Source: a virus
Lineage: Duplodnaviria > Caudoviricetes
Direction: 5' to 3' (one strand)
Length of the DNA stretch: 33,297 nucleotides
Virus record (IMG/VR): IMGVR_UViG_3300032329_000042
Location: 1-33,297 of that record
Shown here: positions 10,378 through 26,594 of the stretch, in pieces
How the letters are laid out: each line of letters begins with the position of its first letter
Position numbering within the stretch: the stretch's first letter is position 1
Program-made: the position numbers and the translations under genes
The notes under the pieces: model-generated
Seen by the model: the letters and a program-made list of their open reading frames with translations, nothing else
Told to the model about the DNA's origin: nothing
The model's database searches: none

Positions 10378-10561
10378 TGATTTCTTTTTTTGACGGCGCG
10401 TCTATTTCGCGGCGGTAATACTTGGCAGGCATTTTGGCTTTTTTATCCAATTGATTGCGCAGCCATTCGGCGCCGCCAAGTTCTTGCAAAATCATCCAGT
10501 GTCTGTCTGACATTCGGATCTGTCTTCCGAGTAAAGGTTCAGGTGGTTTTGGGCGTGGCAT
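10370..10561 (-). CDS. Small basic putative DNA-binding protein (ribbon-helix-helix-like)
   Basis: 63 aa, MPRPKPPEPLLGRQIRMSDRHWMILQELGGAEWLRNQLD; start reassigned to ATG at 10561. Confidence 0.6.
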   Translation of the reverse strand: MPRPKPPEPLLGRQIRMSDRHWMILQELGGAEWLRNQLDKKAKMPAKYYRREIDAPSKKEIND

Positions 10562-10784
10562 TTTTTGTCTTTGTAAGTGCTTCATGTAAGCCAGCCAGAC
10601 CGCCAACGCGCTGGCCATCAATAAAAATCTGCGGCATCTGGCGTGCGCTTTCTGGCAGATCACTAAGCAATGCAGGGTTTGACTCAATGTCAATCTCAAC
10701 ATACCTAATGTTTTCAGCCCTCAAGATCATCTTGGCTGTCACGCAGTTAGGGCATTTGCGTTTGGTGTAGATTAAGATTTCCAT
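10539..10784 (-). CDS. grx: Glutaredoxin
   Basis: IYTKRKCPNC (CxxC), ARQMPQIFIDGQRVGG: canonical Grx motifs. Confidence 0.92.
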   Translation of the reverse strand: MEILIYTKRKCPNCVTAKMILRAENIRYVEIDIESNPALLSDLPESARQMPQIFIDGQRVGGLAGLHEALTKTKNATPKTT

Positions 10785-17526: not shown

Positions 17527-19583
17527 GCAATTTAACTTCTATTTTCCCCAACGGCTTCGCGGCCGCAACAGAAAGCCAAGACCTAATAAACCCAGAAGAA
17601 GCGTTTCGCCGTCATTGCGAGGCTGCTGGCTTGCTGATCAAAGACCAGATCATTGCTGACGGTGAAATTCATCGTGTATCACATGTATCGAGCAAGAAGG
17701 GTGCGCTTGACGGCTGGTACATCTTGCACACCAGCGGCAAAGTGCCAGTAGGCATTGCCGGCTGTTGGAAAGAACCAGTGTTTGAGAGCAAATGGATTGC
17801 AGATACTGGCCGTGCCATGTCGTTCACCGAGCGCTTTGAGCATGACAAGTGGGTGGCAGAAGTCAAAGCCAAGAAGGATGCTGATCGGTTGGCATCTCAG
17901 GCCGTGGCTGCTGAGCGTGCAGAGGATGAGGTGGGAACGTATGCAGATGCAAGCAATGACCATCCTTACCTTGTCAGAAAGCATGTCAGCGCCAACGGGA
18001 TCAAGATTGATCGGGCGGGGCGACTAGTTGTGCCGGTCATTAACCAGGCAGGGGAAATCCTCAGTTACCAGACCATTGATGCAGATGGCAACAAGCGGTT
18101 CCTCAAAGGCGGCAAGATCGAGGGCGGGTTCTACGAACTGCGCGGTAACCGTAAGATCGTGTTCATTGGTGAGGGCTTTGCCACATGCGCGTCAATCCAT
18201 GAGGCGACTGGCTACACCGTGTTGGTGGCATTTGATTGTGGCAATCTGGCCAAGGTGGCCAAGAGCGCCAAGGAGATGTTCCCAGGCTCAAAAATAGTGA
18301 TCGGCGCAGACAATGATCAGTTCACCGAGGGCAACCCTGGCGTCACCAAGGGCAGAGCAGCTGCGGCGCTTGTGTTTGGTGAGATTGTGTACCCATCGTT
18401 TTCAGATTCGGACATGGTGGACAACAAACCTACAGACTTCAATGACCTTCACTGCCTGCAAGGATTGGATGCCGTCAAAGAGCAGATCGAGCGCGTGGCA
18501 GGCCCAATGAAGGACAAACTAGCGTTTGAGTTCAGTCGGGCAGACAGCCTGCAACTCACGCAAATCAAGTGGATCGTGGATGACTACATTGAGGCAGACT
18601 CGCTGGCGCAAGTGTTTGGTGACCCAGGCGGCGGTAAGTCCTTCGTCAGCATCGACATTGCCTGCTGCGTGGCCACAGGCCGTGCCTGGCATGGCCATGA
18701 GGTTAAGCAAGGCTCAGTGTTCTACATTGCCGGTGAAGGCCACAATGGTTTGGCCAGACGTTTTAAGGCATGGCAGATTGGAAACGGCACGAGCTTAGAC
18801 GGTGCGCCATTGTACAAAAGTCACCGTGCGGCTCAGTTGTATGACGCGACTGAAGCTGCGGTGGTGGCCGAAAGCATCAAAGAGCTGTCTGCGCAGGCCG
18901 GAACAGTGCCCAGCCTAATCATCATTGACACTTTGGCGCGTAACCATGGGGGTGACGAGAACAGCACCCAAGATATGAATGCGTTCATTCAGCACCTTGA
19001 CACCTATTTGCGCCAACCATGGAACTGCTGCGTTCTGGTGGTGCATCACTCCGGCGTGGCTGACAAGGATAGGTCAAGGGGTAGCACAGCCCTAAAGGGC
19101 GCCTTGGATGCGGAATATCGATGCCAGTTGGATAGCGGGACAAAGACCATTGCGTTTGAGTCCAAGAAGATGAAGGATGCAGAGATGCCTGCGCCAAAGA
19201 ACTTTCAGATCACCCAAGTGGACTTGCCAATTCAAGACAAACACGGTCTGGCGGTCAAGGGTGCGTACCTGACGGCTGTTGACATTTCGGGCCTGATGGG
19301 CAACATCCAAAAGCGGGTGATCTTGTCAGGCAACCAGCGCATTGCGCTGAACTGCTTGGTGGCCATCGAAGCCAAGCGAGCAGCAGACGGCATTGAAGGT
19401 TTTGCGGCCATGGTGGACTATGACGAGTGGCGTGACTCGGCCAAAGAGCATGGCCTGAATGCTCGGCGATTCAAAGAATGCGTGGAAGCATTGGTCAAGA
19501 AAAACATGGCTTTGGAGAATTCAGACATGTACCGAACTGTACCGAAATGTACCGAAACCGGTACAGTCGGTACAGAGGCTTGA
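17523..19583 (+). CDS. Fused primase (TOPRIM)-helicase (RepA/AAA_25-like) replication protein
   Basis: Start at ATG 17523 (ATGA with cro, GGAGG SD); ADGEIHR, GWY, HPYL..K, IGEGFAT, VAFDCGNL, GADND, DFNDL; Walker A GDPGGGKS, IAGEG, IIIDTL, VHHSG, RGSTAL; possible C-terminal winged helix. Confidence 0.9.
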   Translation: MSNLTSIFPNGFAAATESQDLINPEEAFRRHCEAAGLLIKDQIIADGEIHRVSHVSSKKGALDGWYILHTSGKVPVGIAGCWKEPVFESKWIADTGRAMSFTERFEHDKWVAEVKAKKDADRLASQAVAAERAEDEVGTYADASNDHPYLVRKHVSANGIKIDRAGRLVVPVINQAGEILSYQTIDADGNKRFLKGGKIEGGFYELRGNRKIVFIGEGFATCASIHEATGYTVLVAFDCGNLAKVAKSAKEMFPGSKIVIGADNDQFTEGNPGVTKGRAAAALVFGEIVYPSFSDSDMVDNKPTDFNDLHCLQGLDAVKEQIERVAGPMKDKLAFEFSRADSLQLTQIKWIVDDYIEADSLAQVFGDPGGGKSFVSIDIACCVATGRAWHGHEVKQGSVFYIAGEGHNGLARRFKAWQIGNGTSLDGAPLYKSHRAAQLYDATEAAVVAESIKELSAQAGTVPSLIIIDTLARNHGGDENSTQDMNAFIQHLDTYLRQPWNCCVLVVHHSGVADKDRSRGSTALKGALDAEYRCQLDSGTKTIAFESKKMKDAEMPAPKNFQITQVDLPIQDKHGLAVKGAYLTAVDISGLMGNIQKRVILSGNQRIALNCLVAIEAKRAADGIEGFAAMVDYDEWRDSAKEHGLNARRFKECVEALVKKNMALENSDMYRTVPKCTETGTVGTEA

Positions 19584-19716
19584 TGTACCGATGCGTGTAC
19601 CGAAATGTACCGAAACGTACCGATTTGTACCGATGCAAACCCCCTGTGGTGTACCGAAACGTACCGAACGTGTCTATAGACACGTTCAGGTTCGGTACAA
19701 AAAGGGTTTCGGTACA
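19527..19716. repeat. Iteron array with central palindrome, putative replication origin
   Basis: GTACCGA direct at 19529, 19539, 19549, 19585, 19597, 19607, 19617, 19627, 19651, 19661; inverted TCGGTAC at 19567, 19692, 19709; perfect 22-bp palindrome GAACGTGTCTATAGACACGTTC at 19666-19687. Confidence 0.8.
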
Positions 19717-19761
19717 TGCCGGCGGTTTTTGGGTTGGTTTTGACAGGATTGGGGAGAGTCT

Positions 19762-20109
19762 GTGATTGAAGTAGAAATGGACATGAAGATCGTGTCAGTG
19801 GCCAACATGAGGTTGCATTGGGCGGCCAAAGCAAGGTTGACTAAAACCCAGCGGCAAAAGACAAGGATGGCCTTGGCAGCTGTTGCACAGTCCTATGGCG
19901 TTGAGATATTGCCAGTGACCGTGGTGTTGACCAGGGTGGCTCCAAGAAAGCTAGACGGCGACAACTTGCAGTCTGGGTTCAAAGCGGTAAGAGACGGGGT
20001 GGCTGACTGGCTTGGCGTTGATGATGGGAGCAGCATGATTGAGTGGCAGTACAACCAAAGGTCTGGTGGGCCGAAGGTGTACAAGGTTGAGATCGAGGTG
20101 ATAACATGA
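19762..20109 (+). CDS. rusA: RusA-like Holliday junction resolvase
   Basis: LDGDNLQSGFKAVRDGVADWLGVDDG matches DxDN-x3-K-x3-D...DD; SVAN..HW N-terminal motif; GTG start with GGGGAG SD. Confidence 0.75.
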   Translation: MIEVEMDMKIVSVANMRLHWAAKARLTKTQRQKTRMALAAVAQSYGVEILPVTVVLTRVAPRKLDGDNLQSGFKAVRDGVADWLGVDDGSSMIEWQYNQRSGGPKVYKVEIEVIT

Positions 20110-20255: not shown

Positions 20256-20756
20256 GTGACTGATAACTTGGCGGTGCAAAAGCACCCTGGCGGCCGGCCC
20301 GTCGTGTTTGGTATTGATAATCCGTGTTGGAAAACCATTTGCGAGCAAATATCTATTGGCAAAAGTTTAAGCACGGCGATTAAGGCAGAAGGGATGCCTT
20401 CGTACCATTGCGTGATGCTAATGATTAAGAACAACCCAGAGTTTCGTGGGATGTACGAAAAGGCCATTGAGAATCGCGCAGATCGCTTAGCTGAGGAAAT
20501 CCTTGAACTGGCGGACGAACAGATGCCAGAAGGCTTAGAAGGCCCGTTGGCGAGCGCTTGGGTACAACAGAAGCGGATGCAAGTCGATGCGCGTAAGTGG
20601 GTAGCTTCAAAGCTCAAGCCCAAGGTCTACGGTGATCGCATTGATGTGGCCGTTACAGACAATCGAATCAGCGTGATGGATGCCTTGAAAGAAGCCAAGC
20701 AACGCGTGTTGAAGGACGACAGCAATGTTGTTGATGCAGAGGTTAAAGAGGCGTAA
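20256..20756 (+). CDS. terS: Terminase small subunit (Sf6 gp1-like)
   Basis: GRP, ICEQISIGKSL, MPS, PEFRGMYEKA..NRADRLAEEILELAD, RMQVDARKWVASKLKPKVYGDR; GTG start with AGGAG SD. Confidence 0.85.
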   Translation: MTDNLAVQKHPGGRPVVFGIDNPCWKTICEQISIGKSLSTAIKAEGMPSYHCVMLMIKNNPEFRGMYEKAIENRADRLAEEILELADEQMPEGLEGPLASAWVQQKRMQVDARKWVASKLKPKVYGDRIDVAVTDNRISVMDALKEAKQRVLKDDSNVVDAEVKEA

Positions 20757-20816
20757 TTGGGAAGGGTTGGGCGCTTTTCGCAAAGATTTTCTGCAACTAC
20801 GCACGCGCGCGGCCAG

Positions 20817-20834
20817 CGTTGCGTAAACGCAACG
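20817..20834. other. 18-bp inverted repeat, possible protein-binding site
   Basis: CGTTGCGT-AA-ACGCAACG. Confidence 0.55.
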
Positions 20835-20868
20835 AAAAGAAAGCCAAACAACAAGAAAAGCATCGTCC

Positions 20869-20896
20869 GCTTTATACAATGACCATTATGTTAAGT
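20869..20896 (+). other. dif-like XerC/XerD recombination site
   Basis: GCTTTATACAA-TGACCA-TTATGTTAAGT: 11-6-11 layout; right arm matches the E. coli dif XerD arm TTATGTTAAAT at 10/11; left arm matches the reverse complement of the right arm at 7/11. Confidence 0.75.
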
Positions 20897-20906
20897 TGAC
20901 CCTGAG

Positions 20907-20995
20907 TTATCCACAGAAAAAATAGAACCAAAACATTACAGTTTGAGTTATGAACAGACAAATGTGGACAACTGTGGAAAAGTACCTGTGGACAA
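20907..20995. promoter_or_regulatory. Cluster of five DnaA-box-like 9-mers
   Basis: TTATCCACA 20907-20915 (perfect); TTATGAACA 20948-20956; reverse boxes TGTGGACAA 20963-20971, TGTGGAAAA 20973-20981, TGTGGACAA 20987-20995. Confidence 0.75.
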
Positions 20996-21028
20996 CGCCC
21001 ATGACCCTGCCCAACTGGCCGAGGGCAG

Positions 21029-21097
21029 GGGGGTAGGGCCGGCGCAAAGGGCCGAGGGAAAGGCTACCCCCGCGAACATTTTTTATTTTTATTTTTT
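21029..21097 (+). terminator. Possible terminator-like stem plus T-tract upstream of terL
   Basis: GGGGGTAG (21029-21036) can pair with CTACCCCC (21064-21071), inner GGCC/GGCC; the T-rich run starts 8 nt later (21079-21097), further than in a canonical terminator. Confidence 0.35.
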
Positions 21098-21123
21098 CAA
21101 AAAATCAATTACTATCCCCCCCA

Positions 21124-22650
21124 ATGCAAACCACAATCTACAAGCCCGAAGACGAACAAGAGTTGATGGCCACTCTGTGGACACCGGCGATTGCCGATGA
21201 CCCAGAGGCGTTTGTGCTGTTTGCTTTCCCTTGGGGCCAAGAGAACACGCCTTTGGCGAACTTCAAAGGCCCACGCAAATGGCAGCGCGAAGTCTTGCGC
21301 GAAATTGCCACCCACATCAAGCGCCAACAAGGCCGCATAGACTTTGAAACCCTTCGGCACGCCGTCAGTTCTGGCCGTGGTATTGGCAAGTCTGCCCTCG
21401 TGTCCTGGCTAACCATCTGGATGTTGTCTACCCGCATAGGCTCAACAACAATCATTTCGGCCAACTCAGAAGCCCAGCTGCGTGCAGTCACATGGGCCGA
21501 GATCACAAAGTGGTTGGCCATGAGCATCAACAGTCACTGGTTTGAGGTTGCGGCCACCAAGATCACGCCTGCGGCATGGCTCACTGAACTGGTTGAGAAA
21601 GACCTGAAAAAAGGCACACGGTATTGGGCTGTTGAAGGCCGCCTTTGGAGCGCAGAAAACCCAGATGCTTATGCGGGTGTCCACAACTTTGATGGTGTGA
21701 TGGTGATTTTTGATGAGGCCAGCGGTATTGACGACTCGATTTGGGCTGTGACGGCTGGTTTCTTTACCGAGAACACACCGAACCGCCTTTGGCTGGCTTT
21801 TTCCAATCCACGCCGCAACACTGGCTACTTTTATGAATGCTTTAACTCCAAGCGCGACTTTTGGAGCAACAAGGTGGTGGACGCACGCACAGTGGAAGGC
21901 ACAGACAAACAAGTCTACCAAAACATCATTGACGAATACGGCCCAGACTCAAGCCAGGCACACGTTGAGGTCTATGGCATGTTCCCATCTGAGGGTGATG
22001 ACCAGTTTATTCCGGCTGACATTGTGGATGAGGCCATGAGCAGGCCGAAATACAAGGATCAGACAGCGCCAATCATCATTGGTGTTGACCCTGCACGCTT
22101 TGGCGCTGACGCCACCGTCATTGCTATCAGACAAGGACGTGACATTGTGCGCATTGACCGCCATCGAGGTGATGACACCATGACGGTTGTTGGCCACATC
22201 ATTGAGGCCATTGAGGAATTCAGCCCAGCCCTAGTGGTCATTGACGAAGGTGGGCTTGGCGCTGGCATTGTTGACCGCCTCAAAGAGCAGCGCTACAAGA
22301 TCAAGGGTGTTAATTTTGGCAATAAGTCGGCAAATCCGATCATGTATGGCAATAAACGCGCAGAGATGTGGGGAAAAATGAAAGAATGGCTGCGCTCTGC
22401 CAGCATTCCTAAAGATAGGTTCTTGAAAACTGATTTGGTTTCGCCTATGATCAAGCCAGATTCGAGGGGCACTATATTTTTGGAGTCAAAGAAGGACATG
22501 AAGGCCCGTGGCCTTGCATCTCCTGACGCAGCTGACGCAATATGCGTTACATTTGCGTTTCCTGTGGCTCATAGGGAATATACTGCGAAGGAAAGAACCC
22601 GCGCATATTCTGACCGCGGTGCAGTTGCAACTTCATGGATGGGATCATAA
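21124..22650 (+). CDS. terL: Terminase large subunit
   Basis: WQREVL, Walker A SGRGIGKS, Walker B VIFDEASG, FSNP, nuclease IGVDPARFGAD, IDEGGLGAG, SPDAADA. Confidence 0.95.
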   Translation: MQTTIYKPEDEQELMATLWTPAIADDPEAFVLFAFPWGQENTPLANFKGPRKWQREVLREIATHIKRQQGRIDFETLRHAVSSGRGIGKSALVSWLTIWMLSTRIGSTTIISANSEAQLRAVTWAEITKWLAMSINSHWFEVAATKITPAAWLTELVEKDLKKGTRYWAVEGRLWSAENPDAYAGVHNFDGVMVIFDEASGIDDSIWAVTAGFFTENTPNRLWLAFSNPRRNTGYFYECFNSKRDFWSNKVVDARTVEGTDKQVYQNIIDEYGPDSSQAHVEVYGMFPSEGDDQFIPADIVDEAMSRPKYKDQTAPIIIGVDPARFGADATVIAIRQGRDIVRIDRHRGDDTMTVVGHIIEAIEEFSPALVVIDEGGLGAGIVDRLKEQRYKIKGVNFGNKSANPIMYGNKRAEMWGKMKEWLRSASIPKDRFLKTDLVSPMIKPDSRGTIFLESKKDMKARGLASPDAADAICVTFAFPVAHREYTAKERTRAYSDRGAVATSWMGS

Positions 22651-23394: not shown

Positions 23395-23816
23395 TGCCTA
23401 TAAACGCATTAGCCCCCGTGTCCATAAATATGTTGGGTGTAACGCCAGCTTATGCGGCTATTACGGACTTTAGCAAATACGCAAATTTAACAAGCGACAA
23501 CAAAAAGTTAAAAGTTGATTATCAGCCTTTAAATTTTGATGAATTATTAAAGGCGGGCGCGTTTAGGGTAACTCATCAAGGGCTAGACGATGGGTACAAT
23601 CCTGATCCTAAAGCTGGCTTTTCATTAGTATCTGCGTATAACGATGCAGTTGGCCCTGGCACAAGGGGTTGGAAAGATAACCCTCTTGCTTTGCCAGTGG
23701 TTAGAGAATTAATGACTCAACGGCCAGAAGATATGGGCGCACACAAATATATGCAAATTGTTCAATCAGCTAAGGACATGGGTTTGACGGATAGTCAAAT
23801 CTTTGGTACAAAATGA
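23394..23816 (+). CDS. Hypothetical protein
   Basis: 140 aa, coupled at both ends, visibly more AT-rich than its neighbours. Confidence 0.7.
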   Translation: MPINALAPVSINMLGVTPAYAAITDFSKYANLTSDNKKLKVDYQPLNFDELLKAGAFRVTHQGLDDGYNPDPKAGFSLVSAYNDAVGPGTRGWKDNPLALPVVRELMTQRPEDMGAHKYMQIVQSAKDMGLTDSQIFGTK

Positions 23817-24046
23817 AAGCACTGCAAGACTGCATCATCATTGAGCGCGACGTTGAGAAGCACGCGATGTTTGTTTTGCCGCCGGGCGAGAAGCTAGGCA
23901 CTGGTATTGCCATCGCTATTGGCCCAAAATGCCTAGACATCAAAGTTGGCGACCATGTATACTTCGACGTAGGGCAAGAATTTAAGTATGAGAACACAGA
24001 TTATGTTGTCATGCGTGAGCCTCACATTTTAGGGGTTTTGGAATGA
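23813..24046 (+). CDS. groES: GroES/Cpn10-like co-chaperonin
   Basis: MKALQDCIII, FVLP, GIAIAIGP, IKVGDHVYF, YVVMREPHILGVLE follow the GroES pattern (PL.DRV.., I.LP, G.V.AVG, VKVGD.V.F, Y.I.RE.DILA.VE). Confidence 0.85.
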   Translation: MKALQDCIIIERDVEKHAMFVLPPGEKLGTGIAIAIGPKCLDIKVGDHVYFDVGQEFKYENTDYVVMREPHILGVLE

Positions 24047-26235
24047 CTGATCCTACTGGTATTGTTGCAGCGGCTAACGTGGCGGCTGGCGGTAAGCCTG
24101 CAAAAAGTGCTTCAGATATATTGACAGTCGCCCGTGCGCGACTGGACATGGCCGTCTCTGCTTTAGCAGAATCACGCGAAGACGAAATTGACGATCTGCG
24201 CTTCTACGCAGGCTCACCCGACAACCATTGGCAATGGCCTGCTGACGTACTGGCCACTCGCGGTGCGGTGCAAGGTCAGACGATCAACGCACGCCCGACA
24301 TTAACGATTAACAAACTGCCGCAGCACGTTCGTCAAGTGACGAATGACATGCGACAGAACCGCCCAGGCGCCAAGGTCATTCCAGTCGATGACAACGCCG
24401 ATGTGGAAGTGGCCGACATCTTCAACGGCATGATTCGCCATATTGAGTATATCTCTGACGCTGACGTGGCATACGACACGGCCTGCGAGAATCAGGTGTC
24501 CTATGGTGAAGGTTACATCACGCTGTACACCGAGTACTGCGACGAAAACACATTCGATCAAGACATCAAAATTGGCCGTATCCGCAATAGTTTCTCGGTC
24601 TACATGGATCCTCTGATTCAAGACCCAACTGGCGCAGACGCCAAATGGTGTTTCATCACCGAAGACCTGACCAAAGCAGAATACGAGCGCCAGTACCCCG
24701 ATGCTGCGCCTATTTCTACGCTCCAGTCCCTCGGTGTAGGCGATCAGTCAATCAGCAACTGGCTTAACGAGGACACAGTTCGCATCGCTGGCTACTACTA
24801 CATTGACTACGACAAAACGACTCTGAATTTGTACCCCGGCAACCAGTCGGCCTTTGAAGGCACGCCCGAGGACAAGATGCTCAGAGACATGTTTGGCAAA
24901 CCAGTCAAAAATCGCATGTCTGAGCGCCCACGGGTCAAGTATTGCAAGATCAACGGTTACGAAATTCTTGAAGAAAAAGAGTGGGCTGGCAAATGGATTC
25001 CCGTAATCCGTGTTGTTGGTAACGAGTTTGAGGTCGATGGCCGTCTTTATGTGTCTGGTTTGGTGCGTAACGCCAAAGACGCCCAGCGCATGTACAACTA
25101 CTGGGTGTCTCAGGAAGCTGAGATGCTGGCTTTGGCTCCCAAGGCTCCGTTCATTGGCTACGGCGGCCAGTTCGAGGGCTACGAAGACAAGTGGAAGACA
25201 GCCAACACAAACAACTGGCCCTATTTGGAGGTCAATCCTGACGTTACAGACGGCCAAGGCGCAGTCTTGCCGCTACCCCAACGGGCACAGCCGCCAATGG
25301 CTTCCACGGGCCTGCTGCAAGCCAAATCTGGTGCTTCTGAGGACATCAAGTCCACAACCGGCCAATACAACGCTTCTTTGGGCATGGGAAGCAACGAGCG
25401 CTCTGGTAAAGCTATTCTGGCTCGCCAGCGTGAGGGTGACGTAGGTACTTACCACTACGGCGACAACCTGACCCGTGCCGTGCGCCATGTGGCTCGTCAG
25501 TTGGTGGACTTGATCCCCAAGATTTACGACACACAGCGCATCGCTCGAATTATTGGTGAAGACGGCGAAACAAAAATGGTCAAGATCAATCCTGACCAGC
25601 CGCAACCCGTCAACAAGATCGTCAATGAGCAAGGCATCGTCATTGAAAAGATCTACAACCCTGGCGTTGGCAAGTACGATGTGGTGGCCACAACTGGCCC
25701 AGGCTATGCAACCAAGCGCCAAGCAGCACTTGAAGCAATGGCGCAGCTGTTGCAGGGCAACCCACAACTGTGGTCTGTGGCTGGCGACTTGTTTGTCAAG
25801 AACATGGATTGGCCTGGCGCTCAAGAGATGGCCAAGCGCTTCCAGAAAACTATTGATCCCAAGTTCTTGTCTGACGGTGAAAACGATCCAGCATTGCAGG
25901 CAGCACAGCAACAGATTCAAGCCATGGGCGCTGAGATGGAGCAAATGCACGCAATGATCCAGAATGTCGGCAAATCAATTGAGATGCAGGACATGGAGCG
26001 CAAGGACTTTGAGGCTCAGGTCAAGGCTTATGACGCTGAAACCAAGCGTTTGGCGGCCGTGCAGGCGTCTATGTCGCCCGAGCAGATCCAAGATATTGTC
26101 ATGGGCACAGTCCACGGCATGATCACATCCGGTGATCTGGTGGGCGAGATGCCTGGCCGCGAGCCTAATGAGATGATGCCTGAAAGTGCTGAGTACGCTC
26201 CACAACCCGAACAACAGATGGGAATGCCACAATGA
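24043..26235 (+). CDS. Portal protein (P22 gp1-like)
   Basis: 730 aa; DDLRFY.G..QW, RPTLTINK, GLVRNAKDAQRMYNY, SGKAILARQ, long Q-rich helical C-terminal barrel. Confidence 0.95.
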   Translation: MTDPTGIVAAANVAAGGKPAKSASDILTVARARLDMAVSALAESREDEIDDLRFYAGSPDNHWQWPADVLATRGAVQGQTINARPTLTINKLPQHVRQVTNDMRQNRPGAKVIPVDDNADVEVADIFNGMIRHIEYISDADVAYDTACENQVSYGEGYITLYTEYCDENTFDQDIKIGRIRNSFSVYMDPLIQDPTGADAKWCFITEDLTKAEYERQYPDAAPISTLQSLGVGDQSISNWLNEDTVRIAGYYYIDYDKTTLNLYPGNQSAFEGTPEDKMLRDMFGKPVKNRMSERPRVKYCKINGYEILEEKEWAGKWIPVIRVVGNEFEVDGRLYVSGLVRNAKDAQRMYNYWVSQEAEMLALAPKAPFIGYGGQFEGYEDKWKTANTNNWPYLEVNPDVTDGQGAVLPLPQRAQPPMASTGLLQAKSGASEDIKSTTGQYNASLGMGSNERSGKAILARQREGDVGTYHYGDNLTRAVRHVARQLVDLIPKIYDTQRIARIIGEDGETKMVKINPDQPQPVNKIVNEQGIVIEKIYNPGVGKYDVVATTGPGYATKRQAALEAMAQLLQGNPQLWSVAGDLFVKNMDWPGAQEMAKRFQKTIDPKFLSDGENDPALQAAQQQIQAMGAEMEQMHAMIQNVGKSIEMQDMERKDFEAQVKAYDAETKRLAAVQASMSPEQIQDIVMGTVHGMITSGDLVGEMPGREPNEMMPESAEYAPQPEQQMGMPQ

Positions 26236-26594
26236 AAGCCGCAGACTTTATCGGAATCCTATTCCTAGCCCGTGATGTTACGCACAGTGTTCACCTGAAT
26301 ACCCGCAGTTTTAGCAAACACACGGCGCTCAACATTTTCTATGACCGCATCATTGACGCGGCTGACGATTTTGCTGAAAGTTATCAAGGTCGGCATGGTC
26401 TGATTGGCCCAATTACGCTACACTCTGCAAAGAAGACAACCAACATCATTGAATTCTTGGAAGACTCGCTCAAACAGATCGAAGACGCCAGATATGAAGT
26501 GGTTGACAAGACCGATATGTCCTTGCAACAATTGATCGACAATATCATTGAAATTTATCTGCGCACGCTGTACAAGCTCAAATTCTTGGCATAA
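26232..26594 (+). CDS. Ferritin/Dps-like four-helix protein (DUF5856-like)
   Basis: HSVHLNTRSFSKHTALNIFYD...DDFAESYQGRHG...TLYKLKFL: Dps-like H/H/D/E ligand spacing. Confidence 0.7.
   Translation: MKAADFIGILFLARDVTHSVHLNTRSFSKHTALNIFYDRIIDAADDFAESYQGRHGLIGPITLHSAKKTTNIIEFLEDSLKQIEDARYEVVDKTDMSLQQLIDNIIEIYLRTLYKLKFLA

Follow-up and report, generated by a model that had tools for sequence, protein, structure and literature searches.

What use could a tailed phage have for a recombination site that resembles the chromosomal dif of its host, if it carries no integrase of its own? The question is raised by a locus between the terminase genes of the viral sequence analysed here (the window, 33,297 nucleotides), which from its gene content is a nearly complete P22-like podophage of 33.3 kb. 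Its structural genes are those for portal, coat, head closure and DNA ejection, and for replication and recombination it encodes an SF2 helicase, a Cas4-like exonuclease, an SSB, Sak4 and a Toprim-AAA_25 primase-helicase, with a weak match to a RusA-like Holliday junction resolvase at 19762..20109 (+ strand, phrog_9203, E 0.002). GroES-like, glutaredoxin and DUF5856 genes lie at 23813-24046, 10539-10784 and 26232-26594, respectively. The Sf6-like small terminase subunit gene terS (20256..20756, + strand; PF20901, E 3.5e-31; phrog_1482) and the large subunit gene terL (21124..22650, + strand; phrog_2, E 2.5e-43) leave a gap of 367 bp, from the end of terS at 20756 to the start of terL at 21124. 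Within it, a 28-bp dif-like Xer core site is found at 20869..20896 (+ strand), recognised by its match to the host dif arms and made up of an XerC arm (20869-20879), a 6-bp centre (20880-20885) and an XerD arm (20886-20896). Five DnaA boxes, scored against the consensus TTWTNCACA, follow on the XerD side. Box 1 (20907..20915, + strand) is exact and lies 10 bp from the XerD arm, box 2 (20948..20956, + strand, offset +51) has one mismatch in the window and is exact in most relatives, and boxes 3-5 (20963..20995, offsets 66, 76 and 90) are on the reverse strand, starting at 20963 (one mismatch), 20973 (exact) and 20987 (one mismatch). The gap, the dif-like site, the five boxes and four octamers discussed below are all where the original prediction had placed them.

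At least five DnaA boxes turned up in 20 of 5000 dinucleotide shuffles of the terS-terL gap, a cluster of five boxes in 90 bp has a probability of 0.0008 over the whole window, and a match to the host dif consensus with at most two mismatches was seen in 0/500 gap shuffles, the observed site having a single mismatch. The claim that the phage is devoid of an integrase, a partition gene and CI was confirmed in the 45 open reading frames scanned, which also lack a DNA polymerase; one Cro/YdaS-like HTH protein is encoded. An integrase or att system hidden in the missing part of the genome, which would have offered another explanation of the site, can be dismissed, as in complete relatives that part encodes just the remainder of the coat protein and small head proteins. 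Tyrosine recombinases were found in none of 28 related records, 17 of which are at least 90% complete, and a serine resolvase in none of 15 near-complete ones; these 15 relatives likewise showed no ParA, ParB or S24 repressor (LexA/CI-type).

In order to see whether the motifs are conserved together, as had been proposed for all three types, I scanned 11 of the 64 parts of IMG/VR for TerL relatives and took the best 80, picked regardless of motifs. The two-arm site is present in 27/27 of these TerL-selected loci with at least 87% identity covering the region, not counting one locus cut inside the site (L005) and four uninformative ones (L016, L025, L026, L061). In an alignment of 25 distinct TerL-selected sequences the unit is free of gaps over about 100 bp, and column conservation is 0.99 for the XerD arm, 0.87 for the XerC arm and 0.92-0.94 for boxes 1-2, versus 0.61-0.67 for the spacers. 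A second, pattern-based scan of IMG/VR for the XerD arm plus one box at 3-25 bp gave 119 loci (about 380 estimated), from which the XerC arm, although not selected for, was found at 102 unique sites. Box 1 is at +10 in 92/92 full pattern-selected sites, with 3-25 bp allowed, and in 22/24 TerL-selected sites, while the 10-bp spacer between core and box 1 occurs in 81 different sequences among 179 sites. Those 179 distinct phage sites include many close kin; identical sequences were collapsed before counting, and five loci without an XerC arm (L150, L155, L166, L303, L325), a host site (G049) and a phage contig in a bacterial assembly (G001) were dropped beforehand. Box 2 is at +51 in 72/101 sites, box 3 at 66 in 71/101 and at 65 in 22/101, box 4 at 76 in 29/101, and box 5 at 89/90 in 61/101. 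Thus, the box offsets (+10, +51, -66, -76, -90) are fixed while the spacer sequence drifts, and the spacing of the first pair is about whole helical turns. All 101 sites have 3-6 boxes on the XerD side, and 69 of them have none on the XerC side.

The carriers, lake phages of distantly related lineages, split into two TerL superclusters that are about 31% identical, and both orientations relative to terL occur in each of them, with 2/40 and 20/42 sites reversed. It is thus a unit that inverts en bloc, and neither a directional promoter nor a terminator or packaging signal. When the core was searched for by itself, with a different XerD-arm ending, 22 loci were obtained, 8 of them with box arrays. 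One (L570), with the arm type given for Burkholderia in PMC2731167, still shows the offsets +51, -66 and -90, whereas the other seven are from a lineage that has another terminase and boxes flanking the core on either side. The layout is therefore not universal, as the boxes flank both sides of the core in some lineages and are absent in others. Searching the cassette with blastn against GenBank phages and PLSDB plasmids gave chance matches only, and no RNA family was recognised at the cassette. The IHF consensus is found within one mismatch in 59/194 windows, a count without a control. In 22 phage pairs the box side is alike and the XerC side unlike, the reverse being seen in none, a pattern that faster drift of the XerC flank would also produce. 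A 68-kb metagenome contig with two cassettes resembles two cargo variants assembled in tandem. Several further loci (L496, L500/L512, L532, L535/L537, L538, L556-L576) show dif-like cores with DnaA boxes on one or both sides, the arm types in this L496-L576 group being those of other hosts.

The third motif type did not hold up as part of the cassette. The octamer GGGNAGGG, taken in the original prediction for KOPS, occurs at 20759 (+), 21005 (-), 21023 (+) and 21031 (+), two copies facing the dif-like site and two facing away, and at least three copies were seen in 0/5000 dinucleotide shuffles of the gap. It is polar in the one host chromosome examined (G006), its forward copies clustering on the dnaA-to-dif arm. 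Among 94 cassettes, however, 45 lack any octamer up to 300 bp away, in 35 all octamers there point away, in 10 all point towards the site and in 4 both directions occur, and two complete carrier genomes have no GGGNAGGG octamer anywhere. The octamers are neither co-conserved with the site nor oriented to it, and belong instead to a terL-linked G-rich element (21021..21078, + strand, with two GGGNAGGG octamers), which was delineated in an alignment of 13 sequences. In the same alignment this element and the T-tract that follows keep their orientation to terL and are common to four dif-less relatives; the G-rich element is likely a packaging or late-gene signal that is independent of the dif-box unit. 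FtsK may load at its octamers, outside the cassette. For comparison, KOPS are enriched in lambdoid prophages and have a low density in virulent phages, according to PMC3603311. Of the proposed co-option of XerCD, DnaA and FtsK, the conserved dif-box unit is consistent with the first two, for which the candidate hosts have the genes (see below), and the KOPS/FtsK part is not supported.

A -10-like hexamer 8 bp upstream of terL forms, with the T-tract, a candidate leaderless terL promoter (21079..21115, + strand), although a sigma-70 scan did not call it. Since in relatives, too, both are located between the site and terL, a split at the site would probably not cut terL off from transcription, contrary to what had been suggested. 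Neither is the wide gap unusual, as had been thought, because many relatives carry an additional gene of 370-800 aa there. This gene, which the window lacks, encodes 368-799 aa between the G-rich element and terL (in L001, L004, L006, L010, L014, L017-L019, L021, L024, L027-L029, L045 and L065). Its product is conserved at the N-terminus and variable at the C-terminus, has an LPD23 domain in L004, and resembles a polymorphic protein that is possibly injected; the gene is often followed by a small ORF of 62-69 aa on the opposite strand. Contig ends accumulate at the G-tract in lineage C, with 13 within 250 bp on the G-tract side and 1 on the other, and in lineages A and B they cluster weakly within terS. 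Genome ends and poly-G assembly breaks account for this pile-up equally well.

Which host the site is directed at can be approached from the arms. The XerD arm of the window equals the Rhodoferax dif arm in 11/11 positions and the XerC arm in 8/11, as listed in PMC2731167. Just one of 54 TerL loci from GTDB genomes is a carrier, on a phage contig of 16 kb belonging to a Limnohabitans MAG; phage genes flank the site there on both sides. The arm sequence and this one binned phage contig suggest a Limnohabitans-type host, and the window core has one mismatch to the arm consensus of this genus. A dif pattern with a free centre matched 65 of 139 genomes of the host genus, giving 65 host sites with two rows dropped; in two of the genomes (G006 and G038) the host dif is about half a chromosome from dnaA. 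All five candidate hosts encode DnaA, a PepA family protein and two XerC/D-like genes each, and ArgR was found in 0/5. Second dif-like sites in two single Limnohabitans-genus genomes (L261, on G001:C8, and G089) possibly reflect plasmids, islands or binning.

The phage arms are nearly identical to those of the chromosomal dif of the host, but the centre and XerC-arm position 10 differ systematically, and the host dif has no box array. The host centre is TGTATA or TGCATA in 63/65 host sites, whereas this type (TGYATA) occurs in 0/179 phage sites, which have 19 variants of the centre. Position 4 of the centre is A in 65/65 host sites versus 0/179 phage sites, and position 5 is C in 175 of the 179 phage sites. 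At position 10 of the XerC arm, G is found in 64/65 host sites versus 4/179 phage sites, 145/179 of the latter having A. The octamers set the cassette further apart from the chromosomal dif/KOPS arrangement, for in the phages they are neither co-conserved nor oriented to the site. I also considered that the cassette is captured DNA of the host terminus, and rejected this, since none of 27 host dif loci has a box array, just 0-2 scattered boxes with one mismatch each.

The most obvious function for such a site, integration at the host dif, was among the uses first proposed, and it is very improbable in the light of the following searches. The XerD arm together with a box was found in 0/401 sampled genomes of the family, and none of the 27 host dif loci matches the 18 window proteins tried. 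From 120 metagenome matches 118 full sites were obtained; the host centre occurs in 0/118, phage DNA is on every flank long enough to assess in 108, and the remaining 10 are unclassified, mostly with a short flank. A complete host site is present in just two viral contigs, both unrelated. Logan contigs from four runs, one of which may be the source of the window, do break off or branch at the site, with no host junction among the matches listed; such contigs cannot reveal genome ends. In addition, the phage centres never equal that of the host. When Watson-Crick matching to the host is considered, the XerD side of the centre fits in 0/179 and the XerC side in 62/179, and the window centre mismatches on both sides. 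Paired inverted att sites of the CTX type were not seen, as each record has one site, and a reading as a single-stranded DNA hairpin was discarded, the fold giving no signal (z 0.87).

Those 62 centres, which equal the three XerC-side bases of the host, could be taken for an attP of the VGJ type, at which XerC alone would swap one strand pair with the host dif and replication would complete the integration. In the attP of VGJ, too, it is the XerD side of the centre that departs from dif (PMC5357621), and an integrase is lacking here too. However, 117/179 centres, that of the window included, mismatch on the XerC side as well, no hybrid junction occurred in the genomes, metagenomes or viral contigs searched, and no CI-type repressor was found in the window or its near-complete relatives. 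This route into the chromosome is therefore very unlikely.

The deviation from dif has a parallel in plasmids. The psi core in the pSC101 record has an inner XerC arm CAA and a centre ending in CCA, and the four commonest CCA-ending phage centres resemble this end of the psi centre. The phage core thus departs from dif as psi does, in the inner XerC arm and the centre. A centre that is free and yet biased would be expected if the partner were another copy of the site and not the chromosome. The likeness to psi of pSC101 and cer of ColE1 extends to a dif-like core, accessory DNA of similar length and the absence of an element-encoded recombinase (for the mechanism, see bioRxiv 10.64898/2026.02.23.706985 and PMC5357621). 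It differs in that the cassette is on tailed phages and its accessory motifs are DnaA boxes instead of ArgR/ArcA sites, located on the XerD side. Control of Xer sites by a core plus accessory DNA is described in the same preprint and in PMC9226527.

I therefore propose, with a probability of about 0.45, that the 130-bp unit is a plasmid-type site for the host XerCD that recombines phage with phage, the DnaA boxes serving as accessory sequences. On this reading the unit, probably guided by DnaA, likely monomerises joined phage circles rather than inserts the phage into the chromosome; monomerisation is the best of the three uses originally offered. According to this proposal, the host XerC and XerD would bind the core arms and the host DnaA the boxes. 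The phages, being without a polymerase, would replicate as circles from the iteron array via the host polymerase, and their Sak4/exonuclease system would make multimers. DnaA on the helically phased boxes could then wrap or bridge two directly repeated sites and license strand exchange, a role parallel to that of PepA with ArgR or ArcA at cer and psi, while the psi-like centre would block a completed exchange with the host dif. Monomer circles would result, of use to early replication or to a partition-free carrier state with several copies. A further claim, that DnaA is an unrecognised Xer accessory protein and that in abundant freshwater tailed phages the XerCD and DnaA of the host keep the circles monomeric, with a plasmid-like carrier state tied to the host's replication initiation, is tentative, and I would put the odds against it; no precedent for DnaA in such a role was found in the literature.

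Some observations weigh against the plasmid-type reading. A purely lytic headful phage needs concatemers and not monomers, and a stable plasmid state is unsupported by the gene content, because ParA, ParB and an S24 repressor are missing. The likeness to psi is also weakened by the boxes being on the XerD side. In psi it is the XerC side that the accessory DNA occupies, and the side occupied determines the order in which strands are exchanged.

It is also conceivable that the unit does not recombine at all and is a platform on which bound XerCD and DnaA serve for titration of host initiation and segregation factors, for tethering to the membrane or septum at entry, as has been proposed for T5, or for the shedding of SMC-type complexes. 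The independence of orientation suits a binding role, six relatives from the clade with a phage PolA retain an exact XerD arm but no XerC arm, and a 66-kb phage (L503) has repeats of an XerD-arm-like word and DnaA boxes at about 2300-2750, just after terS. In T5-like phages, moreover, the injection-stop region contains DnaA boxes at precise spacings, according to a hypothesis paper (bioRxiv 10.1101/866236). Titration, on the other hand, requires neither a two-arm core nor a 10-bp phasing, and both arms are kept together with an exact 6-bp centre, the bias of which is as in psi. On the whole I regard a mere platform as unlikely.

The position next to terS suggests yet another possibility, namely a circularisation like that of P1, in which the site would be present twice in the terminal redundancy and the host XerCD would close the linear genome, with DnaA bridging the ends. 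In P1 this is mediated by Cre, and in P22 and Sf6 pac lies inside terS. The P1 record annotates pac within pacA (90804-90813) and lox 4 kb further on. In each of the three main lineages the site comes after terS, at a distance of about 30-180 bp, and the P22-like portal and coat imply headful packaging. In a fourth lineage (L564), though, the site is upstream of terS, two copies would be expected just in the early headfuls of a series, and for closing its genome the phage possesses Sak4 and an exonuclease, which makes this explanation clearly unlikely.

The gene content of the relatives bears on the role of the boxes. PolA is encoded by 0/24 cassette carriers versus 9/12 other TerL relatives, the latter without the site; this contrast rests on one clade and therefore counts as a single event. 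One relative examined in full (G167) has a portal 92% and a TerL 83% identical to those of the window, but its replication module is swapped for PolA and another primase type, and the cassette follows the replication module in this comparison. In six of six genomes checked an iteron-like repeat array follows the primase gene, separate from the boxes. In the window, where it is situated at the end of the primase-helicase gene (19528..19717), 1.2 kb from the cassette, it is made up of 11 inverted 8-9-mers and is likely the phage's own iteron origin. The iteron motifs vary between lineages, whereas the DnaA boxes do not. As a DnaA-type HTH (PF08299) was found in 0/28 records, the binder of these constant boxes is likely the host DnaA, and with a separate iteron array the boxes are unlikely to be a primary origin. 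A phage-encoded box binder was considered and rejected on the same count; a DnaA-type HTH is annotated in MW202483, which has no site.

The coincidence of the cassette with the absence of a phage DNA polymerase could also mean that the two halves have separate functions, the core resolving dimers in dependence on FtsK or PepA and the boxes acting as a DnaA-dependent origin or replication enhancer. The PolA clade has iteron-like arrays in the same interval, some of them DnaA-box-like, and a ParA/Rep element (L536) has a core next to boxes and iterons. Such a division is quite improbable, as the repeat array at the primase gene was present in all six genomes, the fixed 10-bp link and the joint inversion bind the boxes to the core, and no AT-rich unwinding tract is conserved in the spacers between the boxes (AT 0.52-0.62). 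The arrays of the PolA clade (L035, L043, L046, L049, L052, L059, L064) are found in the 500 bp before the G-rich element and consist of several different 9-mers, some of them DnaA-box-like (up to 15 copies).

With respect to known systems, the element is real and conserved, and a variant of Xer sites, not one shown to be an IMEX. It shares with the attP of the IMEX CTXphi, VGJphi, TLCphi and the non-tailed NO16 a phage-borne dif-like site without an integrase (PMC5357621, PMC9226527 and PMC9966536). The cassette differs from these in residing in a tailed double-stranded DNA phage, in its variable centre, in its DnaA-box array, and in that neither an integrated copy nor a hairpin was found; in contrast to TLC, its XerD arm is intact. 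With loxP/Cre of P1 it has in common that a headful phage carries a recombination site close to its terminase genes, and with plasmid prophages that have their own Xer-like recombinase the proposed resolution of phage-circle dimers (PMC8026635). The cassette phages, however, have no recombinase, Par system or CI, and their site is one for the host XerCD. Precisely spaced DnaA boxes away from an origin are also found in the T5 injection-stop region, datA, DARS and Bacillus subtilis clusters, but here they are phased to an Xer core, a link that is not described in the sections available of bioRxiv 10.1101/866236 and PMC13220808.

The known phages that exploit Xer are filamentous or tailless and integrate, and tailed plasmid-phages mostly carry their own recombinase. 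PMC9966536 and PMC8026635 agree with this, describing filamentous and tailless Xer-using phages and plasmid prophages that bring their own recombinase. No report of a tailed phage with a site for the host Xer and DnaA boxes was found in the literature, most subscription papers and supplements being outside the scope of the search, and to this extent the assertion that there is no characterised tailed-phage example stands. A non-coding site run by the host in hundreds of tailed-phage contigs would escape gene-based predictors of lifestyle, which would label the cassette phages strictly lytic. If DnaA controls the reaction, it would be a new accessory protein for Xer biology, and the 130 bp would offer a mutable handle on the carrier state or pseudolysogeny in lakes. 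Three Limnohabitans phages are described in PMC12195039, no such site being evident in the part of that paper at hand, and as it reports cultured Limnohabitans hosts, the element is directly testable.

Lastly, psi-like Xer cores also occur without boxes, beside G-tracts, in five loci (L557, L559, L561, L562, L577), in the four checked directly after O-like replication-initiator genes. In the ParA and Rep element mentioned above (L536, about 700-2330), iterons, DnaA boxes and a psi-like core lie side by side.
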